From an uncultured Endomicrobiia bacterium (GTDB lineage Bacteria > Elusimicrobiota > Endomicrobiia > DTEH01), in contig CALFVX010000001.1 of the NCBI GenBank assembly GCA_937928765.1, positions 16,246 through 80,245 of the forward strand: a stretch of 64,000 nucleotides of DNA. The letters run 5' to 3'. A program made the translations under genes and the position numbers. The notes below the pieces were generated by a model. It was given only the letters and a program-made list of their open reading frames with translations. It was not told the origin of the DNA and did no database searches. Position 1 is the stretch's first letter, and each line of letters begins with the position of its first letter. Below, in pieces: positions 7,104 to 61,100 of the stretch.

Positions 7104-7994
7104 ATGAATTTTAAATATGCAGATTCTTATATATTACAACTTTTAAATAATTTTATTTTTGAACCAGGTGGTGTTGTAGATGGAAAACATCCAGGAAAAC
7201 ACAGAAGTTTTTCTATAGGAAGATCTTTAGAATTTGTTCAACACAGAGAATATACTCCAACAGATGATTTAAAGTATATTGATTGGAAAGTTTATGCAAG
7301 AAGAGATAGGTTTTTTATTAAACAATACTATCAAGAAACAAATCTTGAATCGTGGATTTTTATAGATTGTTCAAGATCAATGTGGTTTCCTGAAAATACT
7401 AAAGAGGTTACAAAATATGAATATGCTAATTATTTAGCTTCGTATTTAAGTTATATATTGTTAAAACAAGGAGATACTGTAGGAATAGCGAAGTTTGATA
7501 ATAAAATAAAATATTTGTTAGAAAAATCTTCTAAAGAAAAATTTTATTATAAAATACTTCAATTTTTAGAAGAAGAAACCGTAGGTCAACAGACAAAGTT
7601 TGTAAATATTATAGATGAAATATTTAAATTTGTTAAAAAAAGGATGTTTTTAATATTTATTTCAGACTTAATTGTAAATAACGAATTAGAAATTGTAAGA
7701 TTATTTAAAAAAATCTCTTCTTATGGAATAAATATTTTAATTTTACACATAATTCATCCTAAAGAATATGATCTTAACTGGATACAAGAAAATAAAATTA
7801 TTTTTGAAGATATTGAATACTTAAATCAGATAACAACTGAAATTTATGAAATAAAAAATTTATATCAAAAAGAATTCAAAAAAATTTTGGAATATTATAA
7901 AAAAGAATTAAATGATAAAAATGTTCATTATTTTGTAATAAATACTAAATTACCTGTTTTAGAAAATCTTAGATTAATAATTTCACAAAAGTGA
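7104..7994 (+). CDS. DUF58 family protein (vWA-like; usual partner of MoxR AAA ATPases)
   Basis: Motif GKHRSFSIGRSLEFVQHREYTPTDDLKYIDWKVYARRDRFFIKQY matches the DUF58 signature. It is the first gene of a long ATGA-coupled operon. Confidence 0.7.
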   Translation: MNFKYADSYILQLLNNFIFEPGGVVDGKHPGKHRSFSIGRSLEFVQHREYTPTDDLKYIDWKVYARRDRFFIKQYYQETNLESWIFIDCSRSMWFPENTKEVTKYEYANYLASYLSYILLKQGDTVGIAKFDNKIKYLLEKSSKEKFYYKILQFLEEETVGQQTKFVNIIDEIFKFVKKRMFLIFISDLIVNNELEIVRLFKKISSYGINILILHIIHPKEYDLNWIQENKIIFEDIEYLNQITTEIYEIKNLYQKEFKKILEYYKKELNDKNVHYFVINTKLPVLENLRLIISQK

Positions 7995-9955
7995 TAAAAT
8001 TTTATAATCAATATATATTATTTTTTCTTCCATTAAGTTTGCTGCCTGTTATATTACACTTTTTATTTTCTAAAAAAACAATAAAAATCAAATTTACATA
8101 TACAAGTCTTATTGAAAAAATATTAATACAAAATTTTTCTAAAAATAAAATTATAGATATTATTATACTTTTTCTTAGGTGTTTAATAATATTTTTGTTG
8201 ATAATATATTTTTCACGGCCTGTGATGTATTTAAATCCTAAACAAAAAAATTTGGATTTAATAATAGCTATTGATACATCCTTTTCTGTAAGACAGAAAG
8301 TTTTAAATACCACAAAATTTGAAATTTTAAAAGAAAAAATAAAAAATCTATTAAAATTTTTAAAGAATAAAAATGTTAAAATAAAATTACTATTGTTTGA
8401 TGAAGATATAAAAGTTTTAAATGAAACATTTGATTTCTCATCTGATGAATTGATTGAAAAAATTAATAATATTAAACCATCATATAAATCTACTAATATT
8501 AAAACTTTGTTCAACTATATATCTTCCTTTTCAGAATTAGATATAAGAAGAAATTATTATAAAATAATAATATTTACAGATTTTGCAGAACATATTTTAA
8601 AAGACAGTTTTGTTAGTTATGATATAAACAAAATATCAAGAGAAATTCTGTTTTGTTATCCAGAAATTGTTTCTACAAATATAGGTATTGAAAGTTTATA
8701 TTTAGAAGATAAAAATGATGATATTGTTATAAATTGTTTATATTTTATTTCTGGGAAAGAAATAAAAAACTTTAATGCGAAATTATTTATTGGTTTTAAA
8801 CATATAGATACTGTTAATGTAGATATTGAAAAGAAAAAATTTGTATTCAATTATCTTTCTAATGAAAAAAATTTTTTTGGTAAGATACTTTTACCAAATG
8901 ACAGTTTAATAGAAGACAATGAATTTTATTTTTTAAATAATATTTCTAATAATGAAGAAGTTTTCTGTTTTATTAAAGAAAGAGAATATTATACAGGATT
9001 TAAAAGTAAAAAATTTTATTTTGAAAAATTAAATATACCTAGAATTAGTTTTAAAATAGTATCTTCAGAAGAAAATTTAAAAAACAAAAATTTAATTATA
9101 GTGGATGAAGAAAAAATTAATGATTTATTAAGTTCTTTTTCTTTTGATAACAAATTAGTAATTTTCCCTAAAGAGAAGATTGATTATGAGGATTACGAGG
9201 AATTTTTAAAAGAAATAGAAATAATAGAATTCCAAAAAGATAACCCAAATCCTTATAGTATAACATTAGCAGAAAGTTCTGAGTTTAATGAATATTTTAA
9301 CAGATTTGATTATGAAAAAATATGGGTTAAAAATAAGTTTTTAATAAATATTGAAAAAAATTCTAGCTGGATAACTTTACTAAAATTTAACGATGGAAAA
9401 CCTGCATTAATTAAAAAAAATGGTATCTTTTTTTTTACTTTTCCTATAGATCAGAGTAATACAAATCTTTTATACAAACCAATTTTTTTAGGTTTATTAA
9501 AATTCATTTTTTTAGAAAAAAAACAAAATTTAAATAAAAATTACTATTTTATTTCAGATAAAATATCTTTATTAGATGATAAGATTATAAAAATTAATAA
9601 TTTTATAACAACAACATATAATATAGAAGATTCTTATAGTTATGAAGATAATAGTATCATTTTTAATATACCTGGGGTATACGAAGTATTTCTTGAAAGT
9701 AAAAATAAACTTTATGTTGCAGTTAATATAAATCCAGAGGAAGGCAAAGTTGATTTAATAGAAAAAAATAGAATTAAAGATTATATTAAAAATATAAATT
9801 TAAGTTTTTTAAATACACAGAAAACTTCTTTTGAAAAAGAACTTTATAATTGGTGTATTGGGAAAGAATATTCACAAAATGTGATGTATTTTATAATTTT
9901 GTTTTTTATAATTGAAACATTATTATCTAGGATTGTTTATAAAAGATTAATATGA
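7991..9955 (+). CDS. BatA-like membrane protein: N-terminal two-TM aerotolerance-regulator-type domain plus vWA (MIDAS IAIDTSFS)
   Basis: N-terminal hydrophobic pair LFFLPLSLLPVILHFLF / ILFLRCLIIFLLIIYF. A D-x-S-x-S MIDAS motif is present. There is a 4-bp overlap with the DUF58 gene. Confidence 0.5.
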   Translation: MIKFYNQYILFFLPLSLLPVILHFLFSKKTIKIKFTYTSLIEKILIQNFSKNKIIDIIILFLRCLIIFLLIIYFSRPVMYLNPKQKNLDLIIAIDTSFSVRQKVLNTTKFEILKEKIKNLLKFLKNKNVKIKLLLFDEDIKVLNETFDFSSDELIEKINNIKPSYKSTNIKTLFNYISSFSELDIRRNYYKIIIFTDFAEHILKDSFVSYDINKISREILFCYPEIVSTNIGIESLYLEDKNDDIVINCLYFISGKEIKNFNAKLFIGFKHIDTVNVDIEKKKFVFNYLSNEKNFFGKILLPNDSLIEDNEFYFLNNISNNEEVFCFIKEREYYTGFKSKKFYFEKLNIPRISFKIVSSEENLKNKNLIIVDEEKINDLLSSFSFDNKLVIFPKEKIDYEDYEEFLKEIEIIEFQKDNPNPYSITLAESSEFNEYFNRFDYEKIWVKNKFLINIEKNSSWITLLKFNDGKPALIKKNGIFFFTFPIDQSNTNLLYKPIFLGLLKFIFLEKKQNLNKNYYFISDKISLLDDKIIKINNFITTTYNIEDSYSYEDNSIIFNIPGVYEVFLESKNKLYVAVNINPEEGKVDLIEKNRIKDYIKNINLSFLNTQKTSFEKELYNWCIGKEYSQNVMYFIILFFIIETLLSRIVYKRLI

Positions 9956-10689
9956 GAAAAATATTCAGTGTTTTTATAATTTTTATATTAGAAATTTGTT
10001 TTTTATATTCTTCAGATAAATTTATTTTTACGCAATTAAAATATAATGGCAATTGGGATCCTTATCCATACGTATATATAGATGTTTTAGAACTAATTTC
10101 CATAACTACAAGTATTAAAGTTGAAAAAGAAAGAAAGGTTGTTGATTTAAATTCAAATAGTTTAAAAGAAGATTTGGCTTCTAAACCATTTGTTATTTTA
10201 TTAGGAGATGACGAGATTAAAATTCCTTATGAAAATATTTTAGTTTTAAGAGATTATGTTATTTGTGGAGGAACAATCTTTATTGAAGACACCTCTGAGT
10301 TATATTATAGCAAGTTTGATACTTCAATCCGAGAAATTTTAAAAATAATGTTTCCTGAACACAGATTAAAAAAAACCACAATAAATTCAGTATTAATGAG
10401 ATCTTTTTATTTGATCCGTAGTGTTAATGGAAGGGTAGCAATGTTTAATTATCTTGAGTACATAGAATATGAGGGCAGACCTGCAGTAATTTATTCAAGA
10501 AATAACATAATTTCTTGTTGGGCAAGGGATAGATTTGGTAAATTTATTCATAGTTGTATTCCTGCTGGAGAACAGCAAAGGTTTAATGCACAAAAATTGT
10601 TTTTAAATATAATAATTTATTCTTTATGTGGAACATATAAACTTGATAAAGTTCATCAGCCTTTTATAGAAGAAAAACTTAAAAGATGA
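9952..10689 (+). CDS. DUF4159-like secreted/periplasmic protein
   Basis: Signal peptide followed by FTQLKYNGNWDPYP, which resembles the DUF4159 core. It sits in the position expected within Bat/MoxR-type clusters. Confidence 0.45.
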   Translation: MRKIFSVFIIFILEICFLYSSDKFIFTQLKYNGNWDPYPYVYIDVLELISITTSIKVEKERKVVDLNSNSLKEDLASKPFVILLGDDEIKIPYENILVLRDYVICGGTIFIEDTSELYYSKFDTSIREILKIMFPEHRLKKTTINSVLMRSFYLIRSVNGRVAMFNYLEYIEYEGRPAVIYSRNNIISCWARDRFGKFIHSCIPAGEQQRFNAQKLFLNIIIYSLCGTYKLDKVHQPFIEEKLKR

Positions 10690-12791
10690 TTACAGTAAAT
10701 TTTAACTTAATAACTTTTTTTATTATTATAACTTTTTTTATTTTGTTATTACTTTTATTTGTAAAATTGAAGAATTTAAAATTAAATTTTTTAAGGTTGT
10801 TAGTAATTTTGTTTTTAGTTTTTTTAACTTTAAATTTTACTTATAAAAAATCAAAAAGTATCTCTGATACAAAGATAGCGTTGTTAATTGATAATTCTTA
10901 TAGTATGAGTTTTAATGGTAGACTAAACAAAATTAAAAATTTTATAGAAAAAAATTATGAAAAACTAAAGAAATATAAACCATCAATATATTTTTTTAAC
11001 GAAGATTTATATCCTTTAAAATACATACAAGAATTAAAAATAGAAAATAAACAAACAAAAATTAATGATGTTTTAGAAAATTATATACTTAAAAATTATG
11101 ACATAATATTTATTTTTTCTGATGGAATAAATTATACTTCTGAATTACCAAGTTTGCAAAAAAATGAGATGACTATTTTTCCTATATGTTTTAAAGAAGA
11201 AAATTTTAAAGATTTGGCTTTATCTAGAATTAGAACAAGTAAAATTGGATTTAAAGATATTGAACATATTATTACAATAAATATAATTTCTTATAAATAC
11301 GAAAGTGTTAAATGTAATATCCAATTGATAGACTTTGAAAACAAAGAAGTTTTGTGTTCTAAAGATTTTATAGTTAAAGAAGGTGAAAATGAAGTTATTT
11401 TGTCTTTTATACCTAAAAAAATTGGCAAAAATAAATATCTTATAAAATTAAAAGAATTAAAGGATGAAATTACATATGAAAATAATAAAAAATATTTTGA
11501 TTTGGAAGTTAAAAAAAATAAGATAAGAGTTTTATACATCTGTGGTCAACCATCTCCAGAATATTTTCATTTAAGAAATTTATTAAAAAACGATCCTTCA
11601 GTAGATTTGGTTTCTTTTGTTATTTTACGTAACCCTGAAAGTGTTGTAGTTGTTTCAGACGATGATTTAGCTTTAATACCTTTTCCAACATATGATATTT
11701 TTGTGAAAGAACTTTTTAATTATGATTTGGTAATTTTTGAAAATTTTACATATAATAAATTTGGCATATATACTCATTATTTAGAAAATATAAAAAAATT
11801 TGTTTTATCAGGTGGTGGATTTATTATGATTGGTGGGGTAAACTCATTTTTTTTGGGAGGCTATAAATTTACTCCTATTGAAGAAATATTACCTGTAGAA
11901 TTGTCAGAAAAAGAAAGATTTTTATATTTGGAATATAGACCTCAAGTAGTCAACTATAATAATAAATTTGTAAAAATTTTATACGATGAGAAAGAAAATA
12001 AAAACTTATGGGAAAATATTCCTAAGTTAGGGAATTATCAAAAGGTTACAACTAAACAAGATGCAAATATTATTTTAAAATATCAAAACGATCCTATAAT
12101 GTGTTATTCTAAAAAAGACAAAGGAAAAGTTTTTGTTTCACTAACAAATACTACTTGGAGATGGAATTTTGGAAATTTATTACAGAAAAGATATGATTAT
12201 AAAAATTTATATAATAAATTTTGGAAAAACATAATTTATTGGTGTGCAGGTGTTGAAGATTTAAAGGATATCTATATTATATGTAGTGATAACTATAATA
12301 TTGATGAAGAAGTTGAAATTAATGTTTTCAGTAATTTAGATGAAAAAGTAAATTCTACTCTGAATGGATTTGTAATATTTCCAGATGGTAATAAAAGAAA
12401 TGTATCTATAAATAAGATAGAAGACAAAAGATATAAGTTTAAGTTTATCCCTAATATGGTAGGGCAATATAAAATTGTTATTATTGCCCAAAAAGCTAAA
12501 GATTTAGATTTTATAAAAGAAGAAAAAAATATTTCGGTTGACTACTTAAATTTTGAAGAAATAGCAAGATTAAAGCCTGACATAGAATATATGTCAAAAC
12601 TTGCAAAAATAAGTGGACAAAAGATTTACTTTTTAGAAGAAGTTAAAATTGAAAGTTTAATAGAAGAAATTAATAAAAATTTAAAAAAGAGGTTTGTTTA
12701 TATAAATGAAATTTATAAAAATCCCATACTAGGGCTTATAATTATATTTTTGTATCTATTAGAAATATATTTTGCAAAGATGAAAAGATGA
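10686..12791 (+). CDS. Membrane-anchored vWA-domain protein with putative class-I glutamine-amidotransferase-like domain
   Basis: N-terminal TM helices; MIDAS-like IALLIDNSYSMSF; later RVLYICGQP...GGGFIMIGGVNSF, which resembles a GATase1/ThuA-like fold. The call is tentative. Confidence 0.45.
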   Translation: MITVNFNLITFFIIITFFILLLLLFVKLKNLKLNFLRLLVILFLVFLTLNFTYKKSKSISDTKIALLIDNSYSMSFNGRLNKIKNFIEKNYEKLKKYKPSIYFFNEDLYPLKYIQELKIENKQTKINDVLENYILKNYDIIFIFSDGINYTSELPSLQKNEMTIFPICFKEENFKDLALSRIRTSKIGFKDIEHIITINIISYKYESVKCNIQLIDFENKEVLCSKDFIVKEGENEVILSFIPKKIGKNKYLIKLKELKDEITYENNKKYFDLEVKKNKIRVLYICGQPSPEYFHLRNLLKNDPSVDLVSFVILRNPESVVVVSDDDLALIPFPTYDIFVKELFNYDLVIFENFTYNKFGIYTHYLENIKKFVLSGGGFIMIGGVNSFFLGGYKFTPIEEILPVELSEKERFLYLEYRPQVVNYNNKFVKILYDEKENKNLWENIPKLGNYQKVTTKQDANIILKYQNDPIMCYSKKDKGKVFVSLTNTTWRWNFGNLLQKRYDYKNLYNKFWKNIIYWCAGVEDLKDIYIICSDNYNIDEEVEINVFSNLDEKVNSTLNGFVIFPDGNKRNVSINKIEDKRYKFKFIPNMVGQYKIVIIAQKAKDLDFIKEEKNISVDYLNFEEIARLKPDIEYMSKLAKISGQKIYFLEEVKIESLIEEINKNLKKRFVYINEIYKNPILGLIIIFLYLLEIYFAKMKR

Positions 12792-14830
12792 AAAAATTAA
12801 TAATTATTTTTTATTTATTTTTTATATTCTTATTTTTGCTTCGCAATACTTCGCCTTTTGTTAACAGCGGAGATAGTGGAGAGTTTATAACTACAAGTTG
12901 TATTTTAGGTATAGCACATAGTCCAGGATATCCTTTATATTCTTTGTTGGGGAAAATTTTTTCATTTATAATACCTTTTGGAAATTATGCGTATAGAATA
13001 AATGTAATGAATATAATTTTTACAATGTTTATTTTAATTCTAATTATTTTGTTTGCGGAAAAAATTTTATTGGATTACAGAAAAGTTTTAATTTATATAT
13101 TCATCTATGGAATATTAATTTTTTCTGAATCATATTTAAAAAATACGATACAGACAGAAGTTTTTGTTCTAAACTCTTTATTTTGTGTTATATTAATTAT
13201 TTTATCATTTTTTGCAATTAATGATGATAATTTTAACTTTTGGTATCTAATATTTTTTTTATTTGGTTTATCATTAGGAAATCATCATACTATAATTTTT
13301 TTATTTCCATCTATATTTTATTTGTTTTTAAAAACAAAAATAAATTTTAAAAAAATAATCTTTTGTATTTTATTTTTTTTGTTAGGTTTTATTGTATATT
13401 TTGTTCTTCCTTTGAGATCGCAAAAAGATCCATATTTTGACTGGGGCGATACTGAAAAATTAGAAAATTTATATAGGGTTATATTAAGAAAAGATTATGG
13501 CACATTTCAACTTACAATTGACAAACCTTTAGAAAGAAATTTTACAAATATTCTTCTTCAAATAAAAAGATTTTTTAAAAAAAGTATAAAAGATTTAACA
13601 ATTTTTGGATTGATATTGGTTATAATAAGTTTTTACTTTTTATTTATAAATAATAAAAAAATATTTGTTTTAATTTTTACATCTTATATTATATCTGGCA
13701 TAGGATTTATGTTATTGTCTAATATGCCATTTGAACCTTTATATGATGGAATATTAGAAAGATTTTATATTTTACCTAACACAATAGCAATACTATCTTG
13801 TTTGTTATGTTTGGTTTATATAAATAAATTTTTGATAACAATTTTTTTATTTGCTATCTTAGGATTTGGATATAATTTCTACAATAACATAAATGTTTGT
13901 AATTATAGAAATTATTATCTAAATTATGACTATGGAATTAACATTTTTAAGATTTTACCTTATAATAGTTTACTTTTTATGGATGGTGGCGATGATACTT
14001 TTTATACTTTAGGATATCTGCAAGCAGTAGAAAGAAGAAGAAAAGATGTTGGTTTATATGATCGTGGTGGCTTGGTATTTAAAAGTATATATGGTAAAGA
14101 TTTTAGAAGTTTATCTAAACAAGAGAAAGAAGTGTTGAGGATTAGTGTTGAAAAAAGTTTTATTAATTCGAGGCCAGTTTTTTATTCTACATTTAATAAA
14201 AATATTTTGCCTGAAGAGAAATTAAAATATGCAGGCGTTTTGTATTTTGTGGAATCAAGTTTTTTAAATAGAAATTATGATAGAGAATTTATTACAGAAA
14301 TTTATTCTTACCGTGGAATATTTGAGAAATATTGTGATTATAGAAGTAATGCATTGGCACCAGTATATCTTTTTATGGAAAGTTTGCAAGAAAAAAATTT
14401 AAAAGAAAAGATTAAATTGTTAAAATATCTTTATTATTTATATCCTGAAATAGATTGGTTAAAAAATAATTGTATAATTGAATTACATAAAATAGGTTTT
14501 GAACTTTTTAATAATGAAAATTTTTTATTAAGTAGAGATGTATATGAGTTAATATTGAAAATAAAAGCAGATGATGTTTATGCTTTATTAAACTTAGGAG
14601 TAAATTATGAAAAGGTTGGAAAATTCATTTCTGCTGAGGAGTGTTATAAGAAAGCAATGAGTATTCAACCATCAAATGTTCGTGCTCATTATAACCTAGG
14701 AAGTTTATATTGGAGACAAAATAAATGGCAAGAGTCATTGTTGATGTTTGAAAAAGTTTTAGATTTAGAACCACAAAATGAAGAAGTAAAAAAATATATA
14801 GAGTATTTAAAACTAAAAATTAAAAGTTGA
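12788..14830 (+). CDS. DUF2723 / TMTC-like GT-C fold glycosyltransferase (protein O-mannosyltransferase-like) with C-terminal TPR repeats
   Basis: N-terminal motif NSGDSGEFITTSCILGIAHSPGYPLYSLLGKIF (DUF2723/TMEM260 family), more than 10 TM helices, and a C-terminal TPR module (LNLGVNYEKVGKF...AHYNLGSLYWRQNKWQES). Confidence 0.65.
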   Translation: MKKLIIIFYLFFIFLFLLRNTSPFVNSGDSGEFITTSCILGIAHSPGYPLYSLLGKIFSFIIPFGNYAYRINVMNIIFTMFILILIILFAEKILLDYRKVLIYIFIYGILIFSESYLKNTIQTEVFVLNSLFCVILIILSFFAINDDNFNFWYLIFFLFGLSLGNHHTIIFLFPSIFYLFLKTKINFKKIIFCILFFLLGFIVYFVLPLRSQKDPYFDWGDTEKLENLYRVILRKDYGTFQLTIDKPLERNFTNILLQIKRFFKKSIKDLTIFGLILVIISFYFLFINNKKIFVLIFTSYIISGIGFMLLSNMPFEPLYDGILERFYILPNTIAILSCLLCLVYINKFLITIFLFAILGFGYNFYNNINVCNYRNYYLNYDYGINIFKILPYNSLLFMDGGDDTFYTLGYLQAVERRRKDVGLYDRGGLVFKSIYGKDFRSLSKQEKEVLRISVEKSFINSRPVFYSTFNKNILPEEKLKYAGVLYFVESSFLNRNYDREFITEIYSYRGIFEKYCDYRSNALAPVYLFMESLQEKNLKEKIKLLKYLYYLYPEIDWLKNNCIIELHKIGFELFNNENFLLSRDVYELILKIKADDVYALLNLGVNYEKVGKFISAEECYKKAMSIQPSNVRAHYNLGSLYWRQNKWQESLLMFEKVLDLEPQNEEVKKYIEYLKLKIKS

Positions 14831-16998
14831 ATTTTATGCTTATACAGATAATTTTGTTTTTTAATATTTTTTTGACTTATCTTTACACTTTATTTCCAAC
14901 GATAGCTGCATATCGTGATTCAGCAGAATTTTGTAGCGTAGGAAAAATTTTAGGTGTTGCTCATCCTCCAGGTTATCCATTATATACCTTGTTAATAAAT
15001 ATTTTTGGGCGGATATTATTTTTAGGTAATTATGCTTATAGGATTAATATATTTTCTGCTTTAATATCAACATTAGTTGCATTAGGATTATATAAGTTGT
15101 ACATTTTTTTAAATGAAGAAATATATAAAGAAAATAAATCTATAGAATATAAAATAATTGGTTATATTTTAAGTTTAATTTTTGCATTTGGATATTTGCA
15201 ATGGTATTTATCTTTAGTTTCTGAGATGTATACATTAAATACTTTTTTTGCATTTATATTAGTTTATTTATGTATTTTATATTTTTTAAAAGACAAGAAA
15301 TTAGTGTTTTTATCATTTTTTGTTTTTGGTTTAGGAATAACAAATAGATTAGATTTAATTTTGTTTTTTCCGTTGGTAATTTTAATTTTCTTTGACTATA
15401 TAAAGTATTGCAGAGAAAAATTTAAAATTTTTTTTGTGTTATTATTTATTTTTTTATTAGGGTTTAGTTGTTATTTATACTTACCAATAAGATCATCCCA
15501 AAATCCTTTTATAGATTGGAATAATCCAGAAGGATTGAATAATCTATGGGCATCTTTGATAAGAAAAACCCATGGTTCTACTTTGGATCTTATTTCCAAA
15601 GGTTATAAGAAAGCAGAAAATTTTTTTGAAGGACTACGTCTATACTTTTCTTATGTTTTTAAAAATTTTGCGGCTTTAGGTGTTATATTTATTATTTTAG
15701 GAATTATTAATACTTACAAATTTAGCTTTAAAATTTTTGTTTCTTTAATTTTAAGTTGGATTTTAAGTTGCATATATTTTATCTATACAGCAAATATGCC
15801 GCCTAATCCACATTCTTTTGCTATACTTGAAGCACATTTTTTGTTACCAAATATAGTTATGTTTGTATGGTTTATTTTTGGTGTATTATTTTTAACACAA
15901 AAGTATAAAAAAATAATTTTTTTTGTTTTAGTTTTTATTCTAATATATAACATCTATTCTAATTTATACAAACTTAATAAGAGGAACAATTTTTATGCTT
16001 ATGATTATACTTTAAATTTGTTTAGAACAATAGATAAAAATAGTTTGGTAATAATAAAAGAAGATGTACAACTTTTTTCTTTGTGGTATAGAAAGTTTGT
16101 AGATAAAATTCAAAAAGAAATTCCTTTATTGGCGTTTGGTTTAATGGGTTCTATTTGGTATCAAAAAATGTTTTTTAATTATGCTAATTACTACGGCTTT
16201 AAGAAAGATTTATTTTTTGTAAGATTAGATAGTGAAAATCGTTGGAAAGAATTTTTATATAATAATAGAAATTTTAATATTTTTATAACTCCAGATGTAG
16301 AATATAAAAATATAGATGGTTATAAAGTTGTTCCTTATGGTTTATGTTATCAAATATTAAAAGAAGATAAAAAGGTTGATAAGTTTATAGAGAATAAAAT
16401 TTTTTATGATGAAATTTATCTTTTTCGTAATGAATATATTTATAATGTTGAATTTGACTTTTTTTCTTCAGATATAGTTGAAGATTATAACAAGTCATTA
16501 TCAAGTATAGGGTATTATTACTTTAAAAATGCTTTTTTTGAAGACGCTATTAAGTTTTATATAAGATCAATTTCTATGAATTTTATAAATCCATATTCAT
16601 TTTTTGAATTAGGATATTTATATTTTAATTTAGGAGATTTAAAGAAAGCAAAAAAAATATATTCTGTTGCTAAAAAAAAATTTGAAAATTATCTTAAGTT
16701 AGCAACAAAATATAAAGCGTTTAAAGAAGTGCAACAAAATATAATATATTATACTTCAATATGTTGTTTAAATTTAGGTGTTGTAGAAGAAAAATTAGGT
16801 TTTTTAGATAATGCCATAGAATATTATAATACTGCTATTATGTATAACCCGAATGTGGCAGATATTTATTATAATCTTGCAGTAGTTTATTGGAAGAAAA
16901 AAGAATTTGATAAAGTGATACAAAATTTGCTTAAAGCTTTAAGTTTAAATCCACAACATAAAGAAGCAAAAGTATTACTTGATAGATTTAAAAAATAA
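14827..16998 (+). CDS. Second DUF2723 / TMTC-like GT-C glycosyltransferase with C-terminal TPR (tandem paralog)
   Basis: Paralogous N-terminal motif AYRDSAEFCSVGKILGVAHPPGYPLYTLLINIFG. The architecture matches the upstream gene, with an ATGA overlap. Confidence 0.65.
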   Translation: MNFMLIQIILFFNIFLTYLYTLFPTIAAYRDSAEFCSVGKILGVAHPPGYPLYTLLINIFGRILFLGNYAYRINIFSALISTLVALGLYKLYIFLNEEIYKENKSIEYKIIGYILSLIFAFGYLQWYLSLVSEMYTLNTFFAFILVYLCILYFLKDKKLVFLSFFVFGLGITNRLDLILFFPLVILIFFDYIKYCREKFKIFFVLLFIFLLGFSCYLYLPIRSSQNPFIDWNNPEGLNNLWASLIRKTHGSTLDLISKGYKKAENFFEGLRLYFSYVFKNFAALGVIFIILGIINTYKFSFKIFVSLILSWILSCIYFIYTANMPPNPHSFAILEAHFLLPNIVMFVWFIFGVLFLTQKYKKIIFFVLVFILIYNIYSNLYKLNKRNNFYAYDYTLNLFRTIDKNSLVIIKEDVQLFSLWYRKFVDKIQKEIPLLAFGLMGSIWYQKMFFNYANYYGFKKDLFFVRLDSENRWKEFLYNNRNFNIFITPDVEYKNIDGYKVVPYGLCYQILKEDKKVDKFIENKIFYDEIYLFRNEYIYNVEFDFFSSDIVEDYNKSLSSIGYYYFKNAFFEDAIKFYIRSISMNFINPYSFFELGYLYFNLGDLKKAKKIYSVAKKKFENYLKLATKYKAFKEVQQNIIYYTSICCLNLGVVEEKLGFLDNAIEYYNTAIMYNPNVADIYYNLAVVYWKKKEFDKVIQNLLKALSLNPQHKEAKVLLDRFKK

Positions 16999-17016: not shown

Positions 17017-18135
17017 ATGAATAAAAAAATTTTGTTACTTACAGCAAGTTATGGCAGCGGTCATATCACCGCAACAAAATCTTTACAAGAAATGTTTAAA
17101 AAATTATATCCTGATACGGAAACAAAAGTTGTAGATTTTTTAGATATTAACAATACATCTTCAAAAGAAAAAAAATTAACTTTTTTTCAGAAATTATACA
17201 ATTTTTCAATGGAAAAACCAATTATTTTTGATATATTTTTTTATATTACTAATAATAAATTTTGTAGTTTTTTGTTGAGTAAAATGATTACATTTAGATA
17301 TTATAAAACAGTTGAAAAACTTTTTGATGAGTATAAACCAGATCTTATTATTTCCTCACATCCGTATTGGAATTTTTTGGTTAAAAAATATAAAAAGAAA
17401 AAAAATGTGCCATACATTTGTATAATTACAGATTCTTATATGATTCATAATGCATGGATAGAAAAATCAGTTGATTATTATTGTGTAATAGATGATGATT
17501 CAAAACATGTCTTGATAAATAAAGGGATGAGAAATATCGTAGTTACAGGTTTTCCAGTAAGTTATAAGTTGTTTGAAAGCATAGACAGAAATAAAATTCT
17601 TTCAGAATTAGGATTAAAGGAAAATAAATTAACTATTTTAATCACAATAGGTCTGGGCGCGTTAGAAAAGTTTTTAAAGATTATAGAATTTTTAAGAACA
17701 AAAAAAGAGGATTTTCAATTAATTATTATAACTGGAAAATATCAAAAAATATATGAAGAGTTAAAAAATAAAAACTTCATTCCACCAACTGTTATAATTG
17801 GATGGACAGATCGTATGTATGATTTTATTTGTGCAAGTGATTTAGTAATATGCAAAGGAGGCGGAGCTATTACATCTGAAGCATTATCTGCTAGATGTCC
17901 TATTTTCATTCCTCTATTTGTACCTGGGCAAGAAAGAGGAAATGTTTACATTATTAAAAAATATAAAATGGGTTTTTACGAAGAAAAATTAGAAAATGTG
18001 TTTTGTAATTTAGAGGAAATTATATCTAAAAATATTAATCTGCAAGAATATGTAAATAATATAAAATCTTATGTTAAGTATAACCCGGCAGAAAAAATAG
18101 TAAAATTTGCGTATAAGCTTATCTATAATTTATGA
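17017..18135 (+). CDS. MGDG-synthase-family glycosyltransferase (GT28-like, UgtP/MGDG synthase type)
   Basis: N-terminal LLLTASYGSGHITATKSLQEMF is the hallmark of the MGDG_synth domain. The C-terminal GT28 region includes CKGGGAITSEAL. Confidence 0.65.
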   Translation: MNKKILLLTASYGSGHITATKSLQEMFKKLYPDTETKVVDFLDINNTSSKEKKLTFFQKLYNFSMEKPIIFDIFFYITNNKFCSFLLSKMITFRYYKTVEKLFDEYKPDLIISSHPYWNFLVKKYKKKKNVPYICIITDSYMIHNAWIEKSVDYYCVIDDDSKHVLINKGMRNIVVTGFPVSYKLFESIDRNKILSELGLKENKLTILITIGLGALEKFLKIIEFLRTKKEDFQLIIITGKYQKIYEELKNKNFIPPTVIIGWTDRMYDFICASDLVICKGGGAITSEALSARCPIFIPLFVPGQERGNVYIIKKYKMGFYEEKLENVFCNLEEIISKNINLQEYVNNIKSYVKYNPAEKIVKFAYKLIYNL

Positions 18136-21100: not shown

Positions 21101-21440
21101 TTCAAAAGAATTTTTAGAAATAAAAAACTTTTCTTTGGCACTACAAGAACAAAATTCTGCAATAAATCTATTGTTAAAATTAAGGAATAAGTTTAATGAT
21201 AAAAAATCTATGATGCAACAAATATTAAATTCTATTGGTAAACCTATAGCGGAAAAATTGCAATATAAATCTTCTGCTGGTAAAATTGGTGTTATTGAAG
21301 GAAGAGTGTTGTTACCTTCTGTAAAAGATTATGAACCACCAAAAGAGTTAAGAGAAGAGATAATAAAGTCGTTAAGCGAAAAATATCCTAAAGAGTTAGA
21401 AAATATATTACAAAAATATTATCAAGAAATTTTAAGATGA
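18132..21440 (+). CDS. Large (1102 aa) membrane-anchored coiled-coil protein of unknown function
   Basis: N-terminal 3-4 TM helices followed by a long K/E/I/N-rich helical region. It is ATGA-coupled both upstream and downstream. Confidence 0.45.
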   Translation: MRIKDYFEKIVILRILFLVSRFVITAVNVIIGFFVLSMLIDKILPLPIIIFHIYWFIILGVIFIFFINLIVRVVELKVKPYYYIMESINKYLRLENKDAVINAFLLEQNLVYDKNLNFSSELASEFIKNVKEKLLEIKPKKIVEFEKIFKVLPLNFILISLAFILYIYPPYVIKEGVYKILFTRNPEILGIFIMPKNIKIPYKESCEIKVIIDKNYELYIPALFVKTKNFDKFVRVNFDSQENFLNRKIYKYKINSIEEKIFYKIKFRGVKTKTFVIDPILYPEISKIKIFVSPPEYTGIEPYEINSFNATKYFYNTNIKFTGTTNKKVENVNLLFSDGEKIILSLDKNKTNFYGEFKITKDTELWFEITDTENMNNFEKLRYKINILEDKYPEIKLISPQDEIVVEPNVKIPLVFSCRDDISLKKVELVYYINNDVKNKIKIKEYLQKTKEDLEEYIFDLSKLKVNFGDVISYYFIVYDNNPYKSQYNLSSVQKIEIFSYEKQHNNIQKQIEEFNKKSLDLLSKEIELKEFFLTKTTTTANFNDDLQKFIISHLKTKEDFDNLEKIISSIVENMSKDPYTSFDTYIEFKNIESLIKELKEEIFPKLLDELRDKNLSKAEESQQQIVDSLERITGLSNEIVKKQNMHNIAEIARDIKSFSEDIFEILKNSDKNISEEEKNKIKNLLKEIEDKLKKINDLIKNMPQDLPIEFVNQRDIQNLDLFSPTDLIQKIVSAIEQNNLSLATMLAKNLLSQLDYITKKISQPSYEIALSGTSYLDKELKELISNLDEIIFEEDEIYKNTKKIENYRITEVLKHQEDKKDIIKNHIEEIKNEINKVLNTDEFNQFVNKNIYKQNSLKAINNLNAVILETEKNIFLKTAQLIEDSKKIWMNNFDLINDLDIEIYRVLIEKTKIVKEKIDELHKIVNLEPEIKYKSEILKKNEELIYKQEFVINKTKNFREKLKSLGKKSFIISYKDILITNQSINSMNNSKEFLEIKNFSLALQEQNSAINLLLKLRNKFNDKKSMMQQILNSIGKPIAEKLQYKSSAGKIGVIEGRVLLPSVKDYEPPKELREEIIKSLSEKYPKELENILQKYYQEILR

Positions 21441-23023
21441 AAAAAAACATATATTTTGTGGCTTTAATTTTGTTAAACTCTATTTCTTTATTTTTAGCAG
21501 ATGTTAATCATCAAAATAGCAAGATAAATTTTATTTTAAATTATTTAGAAGCAGGCAATTTCAAACAAGCAGAAGAAATTATAAATACTGAGAGAGATTA
21601 TGATTTAAAAGGATATCTGTATAGTATATATCATTTATATAGCGGAGATAATGTTTTAGCCGAAGAATATGTTAAAAGAGTACAGAATAATTACAAAGAT
21701 GACTTCTTTTCTAATTATATTGTAAACATTAATAAAATTATAAACGATTATGAAGTTTATGAATCTCAACATTTTAAAGTTTTTCTTAAAGGTAAAGATA
21801 CTATACTAAAAGATTTTATTTTAGAAAAGTTAGAAAAAATTTATGAGATATATGGAAGGATATTTAATTATTATCCAGAAGATAAAGTTAGAGTAGAAGT
21901 TTATAATACAAAACAGGAATTCTATTTTGCTACAACTTTAAAAGAAGACTTAGTTAAAAATACAGGGGTAGTTGGTATTTGTAAGTTTAACAAAATTATG
22001 ATTATCTCACCAGAAAATTTGCCGTTAGGATACAGGTGGATTGACACATTAGCACATGAATACATACATTTTATTCTTAATAGAAAAACATCATATAAGT
22101 ATCCTTTATATCTACACGAAGCAACTGCAAGATATTTTGATACTATATATAGATCTTCTTTTGTGGTATGTTTTACAGCTGGTAATTTGAAATTATTAGT
22201 TGAAGCTAAAAAAAATAATAAACTTATAAATTTTGATGAGATGAAAGGATCTTTAATATATTTTGAGGATATAGATAAAATAGAATTAGCATTTGTAGAA
22301 CTTGCTAGTTTTGTAGAATTTTTAGTTAAAAATTTTGGTATTGAAAAATTTGTTAAATTTATAGAACAATATGATTCTCAGAATGAAAAAAAATTATATA
22401 AAGAAATTTTTGATAAAGATTATAAAGAGATCATATCTTTATGGATGCAAACAATAGATGAAAAAGAAGAATATATAAAACTATATCCTGGTGCTGTTTC
22501 AGATTTAAAAATTAAAACCGCAACAGATGAAAATAGTTTGATAGGCCTTGATTTAGAAAGTTATATTAGATTAGGAGATAAATTTTTAAGTTTGAATAAT
22601 TATAAATCTGCATTGTTTCAATATAATAAGGCAAAAGAGATTGAAGCCTATAATCCATTGGTTTTAAGTAGAATTGGGAAAATATATTTATTAACAAAAA
22701 AATATGATTTATGTGAGGAAGTATTAAAAGAATGTATATTGTCCAACCCAAATTTTGTTACTTCCTATGAGATTTTGTTAAAATGTTATTATGAAAAAGG
22801 TGATTATGAAAAAGTTTTAGAGATTTTTAATTCTGTTGTTGAGATTAATCCGTTTAATTATGAAATAAGAAAAATAGTTGCGGAAGTATATGCAAGTTTA
22901 GGTAAAATTAAAGAAGCATTGCAACAATATAAAATAGTAAAGATTTTACAACCAAATGATATAGAAATAGAAAATATTATTAATTCTTTAGAAGAATATT
23001 TAAAGATAAAATATAGAAGATGA
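21437..23023 (+). CDS. Putative secreted zinc metallopeptidase (HExxH) with C-terminal TPR repeats
   Basis: Signal peptide, HEYIH motif in the sequence DTLAHEYIHFIL, and a C-terminal TPR block. Confidence 0.45.
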   Translation: MKKNIYFVALILLNSISLFLADVNHQNSKINFILNYLEAGNFKQAEEIINTERDYDLKGYLYSIYHLYSGDNVLAEEYVKRVQNNYKDDFFSNYIVNINKIINDYEVYESQHFKVFLKGKDTILKDFILEKLEKIYEIYGRIFNYYPEDKVRVEVYNTKQEFYFATTLKEDLVKNTGVVGICKFNKIMIISPENLPLGYRWIDTLAHEYIHFILNRKTSYKYPLYLHEATARYFDTIYRSSFVVCFTAGNLKLLVEAKKNNKLINFDEMKGSLIYFEDIDKIELAFVELASFVEFLVKNFGIEKFVKFIEQYDSQNEKKLYKEIFDKDYKEIISLWMQTIDEKEEYIKLYPGAVSDLKIKTATDENSLIGLDLESYIRLGDKFLSLNNYKSALFQYNKAKEIEAYNPLVLSRIGKIYLLTKKYDLCEEVLKECILSNPNFVTSYEILLKCYYEKGDYEKVLEIFNSVVEINPFNYEIRKIVAEVYASLGKIKEALQQYKIVKILQPNDIEIENIINSLEEYLKIKYRR

Positions 23024-25841: not shown

Positions 25842-25934
25842 TTCCTTCACGCGATAAAGGCAAACCCTGAGTAATCAGGGGGCGCAAAGCTATAGGGTCC
25901 TTCAGATGAGGGGCAGCCAGCTGCCGAAGGAAGG
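25842..25934 (+). promoter_or_regulatory. Cyclic-di-GMP-I (GEMM) riboswitch in the 5' leader
   Basis: CACGCGAUAAAGGCAAACCCUGAGUAAUCAGGGGGCGCAAAGCUAUAGGGUCC...GGGGCAGCCAGCUGCC carries the GEMM-I hallmarks GGCAAACC and GGCGCAAAGCUAUAGGG with a GNRA-like tetraloop hairpin. Flanking P1 strands UCCUUC/GAAGGA overlap the SD, and the ATG is at 25938. Confidence 0.7.
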
Positions 25935-57490: not shown

Positions 57491-58161
57491 TGAAAAAATA
57501 TCTTAGTCAACATTTTTTTGTGTTTGTGTTAATTTTTATTCCAATTTTTGTTTTCTGTGATGAAAGAGAGGATATAAGAAAGTATGTTTCTTCTTTAAAA
57601 TCTTCTGATGCTAAGGTACGTCTTGCTGCGATAGAGTCGTTAAGTAGGATACAAAACAATCCTGAAGTTGTAGATATTTTAGTTGATGCGTTCAAACAAG
57701 AGCAAGATAATTATCTTAAGATCCAAATTTTAGAAGTGCTTGCTATCCAAAAGTCAACTAAATCGTTGGAATGTATTTATTCTGCATTAGATGATACTAA
57801 TCCTTATGTTCGTCAGCAGGCAGTGATATCACTTGGGTATTATAATGACGAAGAGAAAGTGGCGAATATACTTTCAGATATTTTTGATAAAGAAGAGAAA
57901 GAGTTTGTGAAACTGACAATTGTTAATACAGTTGGTAATATGACTAACAGAGTTGCGATTCCTGTATTATCAAAAGCGTTAAATGAGAAAAATAGTAAAC
58001 AACTGCGTTTTCTTGCAATAGAAAGGCTACACAATATAGGCAATACAGAGGCACTAATAGAGTTAGAAAAATACAAAAATGATAAAGATTTGGAAATAAA
58101 GCAAAGGATAAACAAGATAATATCAGAGAAAAGGAAGAAAATTGAAATAAAGAAAAAATGA
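57490..58161 (+). CDS. HEAT/PBS-lyase-type repeat protein with signal peptide (lipoprotein-like Cys)
   Basis: Repeats of the form VRLAAIESLSRIQN...PEVVDILVDAFKQE / VRQQAVISLGYYND. Confidence 0.6.
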   Translation: MKKYLSQHFFVFVLIFIPIFVFCDEREDIRKYVSSLKSSDAKVRLAAIESLSRIQNNPEVVDILVDAFKQEQDNYLKIQILEVLAIQKSTKSLECIYSALDDTNPYVRQQAVISLGYYNDEEKVANILSDIFDKEEKEFVKLTIVNTVGNMTNRVAIPVLSKALNEKNSKQLRFLAIERLHNIGNTEALIELEKYKNDKDLEIKQRINKIISEKRKKIEIKKK

Positions 58162-61100
58162 GTAAAACCAAACAATATAAAAATTTTTGGCTGGAAATTA
58201 TATATGTTACTATTTTTTTGGTTTTGATTGTTAGTAATTTATATGCTACAAAGTCAAATTCGCATGTTGCGTTTAATCTTACTCAAACTGCACCTATGGT
58301 TAAGGAGTGGTTAGCTTCTACTGGTGAGTGGTCGGATTTTCAACTTGCTCAGGAAGTTGTTGGCACAGAGGGAATAATATATGCTGCTAAACTTATCTCT
58401 GCGCCATCTGATGGTCCAAGACCTAATGAAAAAATACTGATTGTAATGCTATTTGACAATGTTGGGAATGTAGGTAGAATTTTAGCTCAGGTTTATGATG
58501 GCACATCTTGGGGTAATCCACAGATATTACAAACATTTATTGATACTGGTCTTATAGCACCTCTATACAGATTTCCGTTTGATGCTGCTTATGAAACGGC
58601 AACAAGTACTGCAATAGTAGTTTTTACAAATGGCGATAATAATGATACAACAACAACTGCATGGGCAACCTGGGATGGAACTCAATGGATATTAAGAGGC
58701 GATATGCCTGTTCAGACAAATACAAACGCCCAATATGTCTACTGGATAAGGTTAGAAGCAAACCCGAGAGCAGGTTCTCGTGAGATATTTGCTGTTTTTG
58801 CTGATGCAAGTCTTGAGTTATATGCCGTGAGGTGGAATGGAACAAGCTGGGGTAATTCTCAAAACATAACTAACGGCACTCTAATGGGGAATGCTTTGGA
58901 AAATATTGCTTCTTACAGAAGTTTTGATATAGCATTTTCGTCAAGAACCAGTACTTTTTATATATTCGGTGCTATTGGTAGGGTATTTGAAGTTGCATAT
59001 TGGACTGGTAGTGCTTGGGCTGCTGGAACTGATAGTGTAGTTGTAGATGCTCATAATTCAACTTGGCGCTGGTGTATTGCAAAGCCAGATATTTCAGGTA
59101 ATTCAGATAGAATAGCAGTTTTTGCCCAACAGGGGACTATAAGAGCAGCATTAGGGATATTTAATGGTGGCGGTGCAGGCTCATGGTCTAATACATGGAA
59201 CACTAATAATTTTCCTAACGCTAACATTTCTGCTGGATATAGGCCAACTATAGGACTTGAATGGTTAGCAGATGGTTCACAAATAGTTCTTTCTTATTCT
59301 CAATCGGGTATTACTAATCCAAGATATAGAATACTTACATTGCCTAATACCTTAGGTGCTGAGGGTAGTGCGAACAATGTAGGCGGTTCACAGATATATC
59401 AGGTAAAAGTTTTCAGGGAGAGTGGGTCAAACAATATTATGCTTTTTACTGTTAACGACCTTGGAAGACTTACTTCGCAGCGATGGAATGGTTCTTACTG
59501 GGAGCCGGTTCAGATGGTGAATCCGTATGGAAGTTATGCTACTAATCAATTTTTTGATTTTAACGATAATATGGTTGCTTATGGTGGTAACGATCCAAGA
59601 CCTGCTTACAGGAATTGGGCTGCAGATGTTCAAACCTGGTCAGGGACAAATTCTTTTGCTATTGATATAGGTGCAAGTCCAAGGTTTGTAAGGTTTAAGG
59701 CAAGTCCAAAGAGAAATGAGAAGATACTTGTTACACAGGATAATCTTGGTCAGATAATTTCTCAGATATGGAATGGGACTACATTTGTATCAACTCAAAC
59801 ATTGACAACAGCAATAGATGCTGTAGGTGGTAAAGATTTCCGTAGAGGGTTTGATTTTGATTTTGAAAGGAAAACTGGCGATGCGTTGATAGTTTATTCA
59901 AACAATACAACAGTTCCGCAGTATAGGGTTAAAGCAGATGGTTCACTTACCTGGAGTGACCCTGTTGGTATATCAGGTTGGCCAGGGACAGGAACACCTT
60001 TATGGATAAGGTTAGAAGCAAACCCGAATCCTGATTCTGAAGAGATGATACTTGTTGTAATGGATACGAATTATGATTTATTTGCTGCTGTATGGAATGG
60101 CACTGGATGGACAAATATAATTACTCTTACGCTTAATATCGCCGGGTTAATTGAATATACACAGAACTTTGATGTTGCGTATACTTATGAACCATACTAT
60201 ATGGGTTTAGTTGTATGGGGAGATAATGCTAACCAACAGACTCCTTATTATAGAATATGGTATTCAACTTCACAAACCTGGGGTGGGACAAGAGTAGGAC
60301 TTGACCTTGACCCTAATACTAATACTGATTTAGCAAGATGGATGAAACTTAGTTCTGACAGGTCAGAGATAGGAATTTCATATGGTGGTAGGATAGCGTT
60401 GGCAGTTGCAGACGGTGATGCAGACCTTACTGCTATGATATTTTACGGCAATACACAAAGTTGGGGTGATCAATTAGTAAATGCAGAAACAGAGTTACTT
60501 GACCCGGATGCAAGCTCAGTTTATGACTTTCGAACTTTTGATATCTGTTGGGAAGGTGCTGGTGGTGATTTAATTCTTGCATATAGTGATGGTAATACCA
60601 ACTTAAGACACAGGGTTTTTAGGACTGGTGTTGGCTGGGGTCCTGAGGTTGTTAACGATACTGCTGGAAATGCTGCTATACGGCATGTGACTTTGGTTGC
60701 TGACCCTAATGACCCGAATACTAATGAACTTTTTGCAGTTGTTATAAATGCTAACGGTCAGCTCAGGATTTATCACTGGTCAAATCCTGCTGCACAAAAC
60801 GGTACTTTTGATACTCCTTTCCAGCCGAAGATATATAATGGTTTTTATTGGCAAAATACTTTCCGAACAGAACCGTTTGCTTTATGTTATGACAGAGATT
60901 ACACTCCACCTGTGGCTTATTTATCATTTCCGCAAGATGGTGGACATTACAAATATCTTAATGTAATAAGTGGTACTGCGACAGATGGTAGTGGTTATAA
61001 TGTATCAGAACTTAAAAGGGTTCAAATAGCTATACAGGATTTAACTTATCCATCAACTTATTACAGGTTAGGTGTAGGTTGGGTAGCAAGTGGTTCATTA

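Follow-up and report, generated by a model that had tools for sequence, protein, structure and literature searches.

The GT117 gene pair

The DNA analyzed here is a stretch of 64,000 nucleotides (the window) from an uncultured Endomicrobiia bacterium of the phylum Elusimicrobiota (assembly GCA_937928765.1, contig CALFVX010000001.1, positions 16,246 to 80,245), and this study concerns two adjacent genes in it, designated open reading frame (ORF) A and ORF B, which encode membrane glycosyltransferases of the GT117 (TMEM260/DUF2723) family. The window is very AT-rich (∼23% G+C) and carries exactly two GT117 copies, A and B. The pair was first noticed in an interpretation of the letters alone, made without database searches (hereafter the sequence-only reading), and the span given there, 12788-16998, is exact: it begins with the ATG of ORF A and ends with the final base of the ORF B stop codon. 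ORF A starts with an ATG that shares bases with the stop codon of the gene before it (ATGA). For ORF B, two starts come into question, a TTG at 14827, which creates a 4-nt overlap with ORF A, and an ATG at 14836, which leaves 5 nt between the genes. The latter is the one chosen in public gene calls, and residue numbers of ORF B are counted from that ATG.

Both genes lie in a run of plus-strand genes from 7.1 to 25.6 kb that are linked by 4-nt overlaps or short gaps. In scans of 6.3-26 kb, promoter-like sequences were as numerous as expected from shuffled sequence and no terminator was found on the plus strand; operon boundaries were drawn solely from the 4-nt overlaps and short gaps. The two proteins are homologous over their full length, with 29% identity (BLASTP, expectation value (E) 3e-59), and a profile-profile comparison aligns them across 675 columns (E 9e-137). 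Coordinates of the genes, residues and neighboring features are listed in Table 1.

Table 1. Positions of the GT117 genes, their functional residues and surrounding genes. Coordinates refer to the window unless preceded by the number of a related locus (L).
Feature	Position	Strand	Basis or remark
ORF A, GT117 (TMEM260-like), clade A	12788..14830	+	680 aa; ORF list
ORF A, predicted first periplasmic loop, D29-S-G-E32 ... L-G-I-A-H44-S-P-G-Y-P-L-Y	12872..12940	+	corresponds to human sugar-recognition motif with D52, H67
ORF A, R234 and Y237 (human R264, Y267)	13487..13498	+	alignment
ORF A, R325 (human R355; mannose contact, transmembrane helix 10)	13760..13762	+	alignment
ORF A, predicted periplasmic alpha/beta domain, ~residues 368-515, five strands	13889..14332	+	secondary structure of model
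ORF A, D402 (human D441)	13991-13993	+	alignment; invariant
ORF A, C-terminal tetratricopeptide repeat (TPR) region	14333..14827	+	Pfam TPR_1, TPR_2, TPR_8; model helices 518-679
ORF B, GT117, clade B	14827 or 14836..16998	+	723 aa from TTG 14827, 720 aa from ATG 14836
ORF B, loop 1, R27-D28 ... E31 ... H43	14917..14964	+	Arg preceding Asp is clade-B-specific
ORF B, A333-H334 (human R355-F356; ORF A R325-F326)	15832..15837	+	alignment to 9rql
ORF B, D410 (human D441)	16063..16065	+	D in 62/62 clade-B sequences
DUF58 protein	7104..7994	+	Pfam
BatA N-terminus + VWA protein	7991..9955	+	Pfam
DUF4159 protein, signal-like N-terminus	9952..10689	+	Pfam
GATase1_like membrane protein	10686..12791	+	Pfam
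GT28, monogalactosyldiacylglycerol (MGDG)-synthase-like GT-B glycolipid synthase homologue, directly downstream	17017..18135	+	PF06925, PF04101
DUF4175-like membrane protein, 1102 aa	18132..21440	+	Pfam match under gathering score
TPR + Peptidase_MA_2-like protein	21437..23023	+	Pfam match under gathering score
PMT_2 gene, example in a relative	L003:16247-17641
PMT_2 gene, example in a relative	L007:14139-15833
PMT_2 gene, 18 further loci

Family assignment

Both proteins match the Pfam family PF11028 'TMEM260-like' (DUF2723), with 90.6 bits for ORF A and 91.1 bits for ORF B (E ∼1e-25). These scores lie far above the gathering score of 24.2 bits, which excludes chance. The family signature cited in the sequence-only reading is literally present in both proteins, as S30-G-E-F, six residues and LGIAHSPGYPLY in ORF A and as S-A-E-F, six residues and LGVAHPPGYPLY in ORF B. 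Among all sequences of the Protein Data Bank (PDB), the sole core of the glycosyltransferase C (GT-C) fold that was matched by sequence is that of human TMEM260 (PDB 9rql), residues 39-471 of which align with residues 13-432 of ORF A (136 bits, E 1.6e-38) and residues 32-476 with residues 7-445 of ORF B (93 bits, E 1.6e-25); with a profile of A-type sequences, E drops to 7.5e-81. The alignment spans the whole membrane part and extends into the luminal domain, and the human enzyme is nearer to ORF A than to ORF B by these scores. ORF A and ORF B are therefore GT117 (TMEM260/DUF2723) membrane GT-C glycosyltransferases.

In 2023, TMEM260 was identified as the protein O-mannosyltransferase that acts on IPT domains, and it was assigned to CAZy family GT117; 'distant homologs in bacteria' are the only mention made there of bacterial members (PMC10214176). 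A cryo-electron microscopy structure of TMEM260 followed in 2026 (bioRxiv 10.64898/2026.03.17.711096). No functional study of a bacterial GT117/DUF2723 member was found in the literature searched. The family is large in prokaryotes, with 12,457 cluster representatives at E ≤ 1e-3 and 6,239 at E ≤ 1e-10, and close relatives of A and B bear the NCBI names 'DUF2723 domain-containing', 'glycosyltransferase family 117 protein' and 'protein O-mannosyl-transferase family'.

Models or chains of TMTC, PMT, ArnT and oligosaccharyltransferase gave no sequence match to A or B (Pfam at E ≤ 0.01; PDB sequences), nor was a MIR domain found in either protein by Pfam, and the likeness to PMT/POMT (GT39) is one of fold only. 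A Foldseek search against a PDB library without 9rql returned mostly TPR matches, the only GT-C match being PglB (template-modeling score 0.38).

Domain architecture

Confident AlphaFold (AF2) models were obtained for ORF A (predicted local distance difference test score (pLDDT) 91.3, predicted template-modeling score (pTM) 0.87) and ORF B (pLDDT 93.8, pTM 0.91). Each model begins with 11 hydrophobic helices, continues with five strands flanked by helices and ends in 9-10 TPR-type helices. The '10 or more TM helices' (TM, transmembrane) counted in the sequence-only reading are thus borne out. Its '3-4 TPRs' need rewording, since each protein has two canonical repeats recognized by Pfam (residues 599-630 and 632-664 in ORF A) and the remainder of the 9-10 C-terminal helices corresponds to two or three degenerate ones. 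Overlooked at that time was an alpha/beta domain of ∼140 residues with five strands, located between the membrane part and the TPRs, whose Rossmann-like fold was judged from the order of strands and helices.

In the published structure of human TMEM260, residues 24-415 form 11 transmembrane helices, residues 416-564 a Rossmann-like domain built on a five-stranded sheet and residues 565-706 the TPR domain (bioRxiv 10.64898/2026.03.17.711096). Both models show the same domain order. In TMTC proteins, the GT-C part is followed by a long TPR array. The sequence-only reading was thus right in assigning both proteins, GT-C enzymes with TPRs at the C-terminus, to the DUF2723/TMEM260 family, but not in calling them TMTC-like: given the match to 9rql, the domain order and the lack of a TMTC match, that label is to be replaced by 'TMEM260-like (GT117)', TMTC proteins constituting family GT105.

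Three clades across the Elusimicrobiota

One genome per species was scanned, yielding 334 relatives, of which the best 78 loci were analyzed. These are almost all from Elusimicrobiota, the closest being an Endomicrobiia metagenome-assembled genome with 85% identity. Together with the window they supply 158 full-length family ORFs, which split into three clades: A (73 sequences), M (23, nearer to A) and B (62). Within a locus, the genes share one strand and invariably follow the order A-(M)-B; 38 loci have A-B and 19 have A-M-B, the others being cut by contig ends, and many A/M/B junctions are 4-nt overlaps. A and B are ancient paralogues, belonging to separate clades that are spread over the phylum in a fixed order and are often translationally coupled. 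Of the 'tandem paralogues' described in the sequence-only reading, the paralogy stands (29% identity over the full length) and the local duplication does not, both clades being found phylum-wide in the same order. A recent tandem duplication was rejected on the same two grounds.

Because most Endomicrobiia relatives carry A-M-B, clade M seems to have been lost in the lineage of the window. In 20 Elusimicrobiota loci, a fourth GT-C gene of the PMT_2/PMT family (∼550 aa, N-terminal motif PTYDEPxHL) directly follows clade B. It was not found in the 64-kb window, whose lineage seems to have lost the PMT_2 gene as well.

Functional residues

In human TMEM260, D52 and H67 (both in loop 1), Y267 and R355 contact mannose, R264 contacts the phosphate, and D441 of the Rossmann-like domain serves as catalytic base on the acceptor Thr; mutants D52A, H67A, R264A, Y267A and D441A are inactive and R355A retains ∼20% activity (bioRxiv 10.64898/2026.03.17.711096). 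When aligned to 9rql, ORF A keeps all six residues (D29, H44, R234, Y237, R325 and D402). ORF B keeps four (D28, H43, R243 and D410), and H246 replaces Y267 and A333 replaces R355. The acidic residues of loop 1, proposed as a check by the sequence-only reading, are present in both proteins as D29/E32 in A and D28/E31 in B.

The same distinction runs through the clades. No variation occurs at the equivalents of D52, E55, H67, R264 and D441 among the aligned members of clades A, M and B (158 ORFs; one gap, in clade A), and D29, E32 and H44 are likewise invariant in alignment A1. The position of R355, on the other hand, is Arg in 100% of clades A and M and in 0/62 clade-B sequences (Pro 33, Ala 27, Asp 2), where the next residue is His in 95%. 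At the position of Y267, clade B has Tyr in 32, His in 29 and Ser in one sequence. Fixed differences between clades A and B were compared with the known active-site residues, adjacency being judged in sequence: G28 becomes R27, adjoining the loop-1 Asp; V125 and F126 become M131 and Y132, after a conserved Glu; H166 and T168 become R171 and D173 (NHHT to NRxD); F326 becomes H334, adjoining the R355 position; and D403 becomes V411, adjoining the catalytic Asp. The clade-B-specific residues are 95-100% conserved within clade B, and its pocket therefore appears to be still under selection rather than decaying. At the sequence level, this pattern indicates that clade A retains a human-type donor pocket and that the pocket of clade B has been remodeled and fixed.

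The TPR region of the human enzyme contains an Asn ladder that is required for acceptor recruitment, and its TPR domain alone binds the acceptor peptide (bioRxiv 10.64898/2026.03.17.711096). N602 and N636 of ORF A occupy TPR position 6 and are invariant in alignment A1; in alignment A2, the same holds for N680 of ORF B, which corresponds to N636. Across the 158 ORFs, Asn is only predominant at such positions, clade B having it in 55/62 sequences in the N636 column and in 16/62 in the N602 column.

Genomic neighborhood

Directly upstream of the pair lies a Bat-like module (7104..12791, plus strand), the four genes of which are joined by 4-nt overlaps. A phosphoribosyltransferase gene precedes DUF58 here, and a MoxR ATPase gene does not adjoin the module in the window. 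Among related loci with enough flanking sequence, a GATase1-like gene is found directly upstream of the clade-A gene in 49/64 (raw locus count). We know of no established account of the function of the Bat-like MoxR/vWA module.

Each of the two blocks also occurs without the other. Locus L079 has an A-M-B-PMT_2 array without Bat-like genes. In L080 (3736-11884), a DPM1-like GT2 gene (254 aa, DADYSHDP motif) is followed by three tandem GT117+TPR genes without a Bat-like module, so that tandem GT117 genes and a probable polyprenyl-phosphate-sugar synthase also occur together outside the Bat-like context. Conversely, L083 (367-12686) carries a complete MoxR-DUF58-BatA-DUF4159-GATase1_like module without a GT117 gene, preceded by a 1061-aa protein without Pfam match and a TPR/Peptidase_MA_2 protein; in a Kofleriaceae genome, only DUF4159 and GATase1-like genes are present, without GT117. 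The search with the DUF4159 protein, which covered 59 relatives, shows that the Bat-like module exists without GT117, the sample being too small for quantification. Given that the blocks are separable in L079, L080 and L083, their juxtaposition is recurrent in Elusimicrobiota and does not form an obligatory unit.

Downstream of the pair, the GT28 gene scores 149.5 bits against models of diglucosyl-diacylglycerol synthase, under the cut-off of 500. It was considered as a core component of the system and rejected, being confined to an Endomicrobiia subset of the relatives. The DUF4175-like and TPR/Peptidase_MA_2 genes that follow are syntenic in many relatives, the former being detected downstream in 17/40 loci by a detection of low sensitivity. 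A corresponding gene pair also adjoins the GT117-less Bat-like module of L083. Further downstream, genes for DUF2851 and a CCA-adding-type enzyme are located.

Candidate donor synthases in relatives

In relatives L011, L079 and L080, the GT117 arrays have neighboring genes that encode GT2 enzymes of the polyprenyl-phosphate-sugar synthase type. The GT2 of L011 matches ArnC (204.8 bits, the best match) and PgfS (143.8 bits), in both cases over its full length, and other neighboring GT2s match AglJ, PpgS and Dol-P-hexose (dolichyl phosphate hexose) transferase. All of these matches are under the equivalog cut-offs and, consequently, do not define the sugar.

Proposed function and alternatives

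Reading these data in the light of the human enzyme, we consider it fairly probable that A and B face the periplasm and that each of them, with a polyprenyl-phosphate-sugar as donor, adds one sugar to Ser/Thr residues of exported proteins in an extended state, the two having different specificities. Both proteins would reside in the cytoplasmic membrane with the N-terminus in the cytoplasm; loop 1, like the alpha/beta domain and the TPRs, would then be periplasmic. A single sugar would be taken from polyprenyl (undecaprenyl)-phosphate-sugar at the outer face of this membrane; in a bacterial host, the lipid of this donor must be a polyprenyl phosphate of the bacterial type, not dolichyl phosphate. 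The sugar would then be passed to Ser/Thr of a newly exported, extended polypeptide lying in a groove that the TPRs form together with the alpha/beta domain, in analogy to TMEM260 in the endoplasmic reticulum (ER). In view of the changes in the clade-B pocket (G to R, NHHT to NRxD, R355 to A/P, F356 to H), A and B most likely differ in sugar and/or acceptor or form a heteromer. The two acceptor or donor specificities suggested by the sequence-only reading are plausible in this respect, clade B having fixed, remodeled residues near known active-site residues. The exported and membrane proteins of the Bat-like vWA operon would be the most obvious candidate clients. For the TPR-rich proteins of the window, which the same reading had conceived as substrates, no support was found beyond the signal-like N-termini of some of them, by which these would be accessible only.

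Several observations weigh against such a role. The identities of donor and acceptor are inferred. No polyprenyl-phosphate-sugar synthase gene was found in the 64-kb window, the ORFs of the window contain no match to the human sequon P-x5-P-x3-G-P-x2-[GA]-G-G-x2-[ST] or its core, and no Ser/Thr-rich disordered stretch above 30% was found in the operon neighbors. Sequence homology to TMEM260 does not extend beyond ∼residue 433 of ORF A and ∼residue 445 of ORF B, early in the alpha/beta domain, and the rest of this domain and the TPRs match TMEM260 by architecture only. R355 is absent from all of clade B and Y267 from about half of it. Position-6 Asn residues are common in TPRs generally, so that those of A and B are at most consistent with peptide binding. 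Finally, the occurrence of the Bat-like module and the GT-C array without each other argues against a necessary connection between them.

A farther-reaching version of the proposal, to which we assign a low probability, holds that the array is a dedicated periplasmic multi-enzyme system for O-glycosylation of unfolded exports, in which clade B serves another sugar or sequon and the Bat-like module is coupled to glycosylation, its proteins being the clients. It would follow that metazoan TMEM260 descended from a clade-A-like bacterial form and, if true, the array would be the bacterial counterpart of co-translational O-mannosylation in the ER.

The main alternative, unlikely in our judgment, is that A and B perform the same GT-C chemistry on a non-protein acceptor, that is, a glycolipid, a molecule of the lipid A or lipopolysaccharide (LPS) type or a lipid-linked glycan, the TPRs serving to dock partners. 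GT-Cs with non-protein acceptors do exist, examples being ArnT, the ALG mannosyltransferases and AftB, but the sole sequence relative of A and B with a known function is a protein O-mannosyltransferase. Moreover, the catalytic-base Asp, invariant in the 158 ORFs, sits in the alpha/beta domain outside the GT-C core, the TPR domain of TMEM260 suffices on its own for peptide binding, and the GT28 glycolipid synthase homologue is missing from most loci of the phylum while the A/B pair persists.

Improbable to a slightly greater degree is that only clade A (and M) is catalytic, B being a weakened or non-catalytic obligate heteromer partner that recruits the acceptor. Such obligate pairs are known in Pmt1-Pmt2 and POMT1-POMT2. 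Loss of R355 and, in about half of clade B, of Y267, both important in the human enzyme, would fit this explanation, as would the almost constant adjacency of A and B in a fixed order, often with a 4-nt overlap, which suggests equimolar co-production. However, the equivalents of D52, E55, H67, R264 and D441 are invariant in 62/62 clade-B sequences, and the replacing residues R27, R171, D173 and H334 are fixed at 95-100%, which fits a remodeled pocket better than decay. A non-catalytic or heteromeric B would be compatible with a protein acceptor as well as with a lipid or glycan acceptor.

That the genes encode TMTC-like (GT105) enzymes arisen by local tandem duplication, with the TPR-rich proteins of the window as clients, is very improbable: a GT-C part with C-terminal TPRs superficially recalls the TMTC layout and several of the TPR proteins have signal-like N-termini, but no TMTC/PMT Pfam match was obtained at E ≤ 0.01, an alpha/beta domain with the catalytic Asp is interposed between GT-C and TPRs, A and B are only 29% identical in clades that extend over the phylum, and nothing ties the TPR proteins to the enzymes.

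Comparison with known glycosylation systems

The preferred reading, transfer of a single sugar to exported proteins, draws on human TMEM260 (9rql/9rqm/9rqn), which acts on the IPT domains of plexins, cMET and RON. PF11028, the domain order and D52/H67/R264/D441 are common to the human enzyme, A and B; ORF A also has Y267 and R355, both of which ORF B lacks. The human IPT sequon is absent from the proteins of the window, and neither the TPRs nor the second half of the alpha/beta domain can be aligned by sequence. Whereas TMEM260 is a single human gene without paralogue (PMC10214176), two tandem paralogues are found here and up to three, plus PMT_2, in relatives.

The cadherin O-mannosyltransferases TMTC1-4 (GT105) resemble A and B in their GT-C core and luminal/periplasmic TPRs, and use a lipid-phosphate-mannose donor (PMC10214176; bioRxiv 10.64898/2026.03.17.711096). 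In contrast to TMTC, A and B have no PMT_2/TMTC-type Pfam match, an interposed alpha/beta domain and a short TPR region. TMEM260 and TMTC themselves have the GT-C fold in common, with no significant sequence similarities (PMC10214176). With regard to PMT/POMT (GT39) and ArnT (GT83), there is no similarity at the sequence level, no MIR Pfam match and no PMT_2 gene in the window.

Bacterial precedents for the proposed logic exist in other GT-C families. In the streptococcal systems GtrB/PgtC2 and PgfS/PgfM1, a GT2 makes the polyprenyl-phosphate-sugar and a GT-C moves the sugar to Ser/Thr outside the membrane (PMC12041528); unlike A and B, the GT-Cs PgtC2 and PgfM1 belong to the YfhO family and lack TPRs. 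TfpW of Pseudomonas, compared here by its description, glycosylates pilin and is reported to carry a TPR domain at a periplasmic C-terminus, after 11 predicted TM helices (bioRxiv 10.1101/2020.04.19.049825).

The family is known, and annotation pipelines recognize these proteins. Rather than a new type of enzyme, A and B thus offer an entry point to what may be a pathway of protein glycosylation in bacteria. Three features appear to be new: an A-(M)-B-(PMT_2) array that extends over the phylum, the fixed changes of clade B next to known active-site residues, and the location of the array, which is often within a Bat-like operon. The array offers a natural pair or triplet in which one paralogue has a human-type pocket and another a fixed, remodeled one, and thereby a testable comparison. 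The polyprenyl-phosphate-sugar synthase genes near the arrays of relatives point to the class of donor, and the repeated proximity of the array to the Bat-like vWA operon could provide a first access to the function of both. If exported proteins are indeed glycosylated, this would constitute a further route of bacterial protein O-glycosylation.

Other features of the window

A V-type ATPase subunit D gene (PF01813; 4580..5194, plus strand) stands alone, with no other V-ATPase subunit among the scanned flanking genes. At 25850..25929 (plus strand), a c-di-GMP-I-GGC variant riboswitch was identified (RF03167, 66.3 bits), directly 3' of which a 153-aa protein with a type IX secretion system (T9SS) C-terminal sorting domain is encoded. 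Up to 37983, this gene is followed by those for a TPR/FadL-like protein and a FliG-like protein with TPRs and by ORFs of 1602 aa, with only a sub-threshold TPR_2 match (21.7 bits vs 27), and 1065 aa, without Pfam match. This stretch has an unusually high AT skew of 0.30-0.39.

Finally, a giant ORF (58158..63998, plus strand) runs off the end of the window; it encodes at least 1947 aa, and its N-terminus is signal- or TM-like. Its G+C content is 38-39%, compared with ∼23% for the rest of the window, and it contains Ser/Thr-rich stretches (13/30 residues near aa 1354). The sole Pfam match is a sub-threshold one to the Ig-like domain Big_13, and the ORF may encode a large surface protein or represent foreign DNA.

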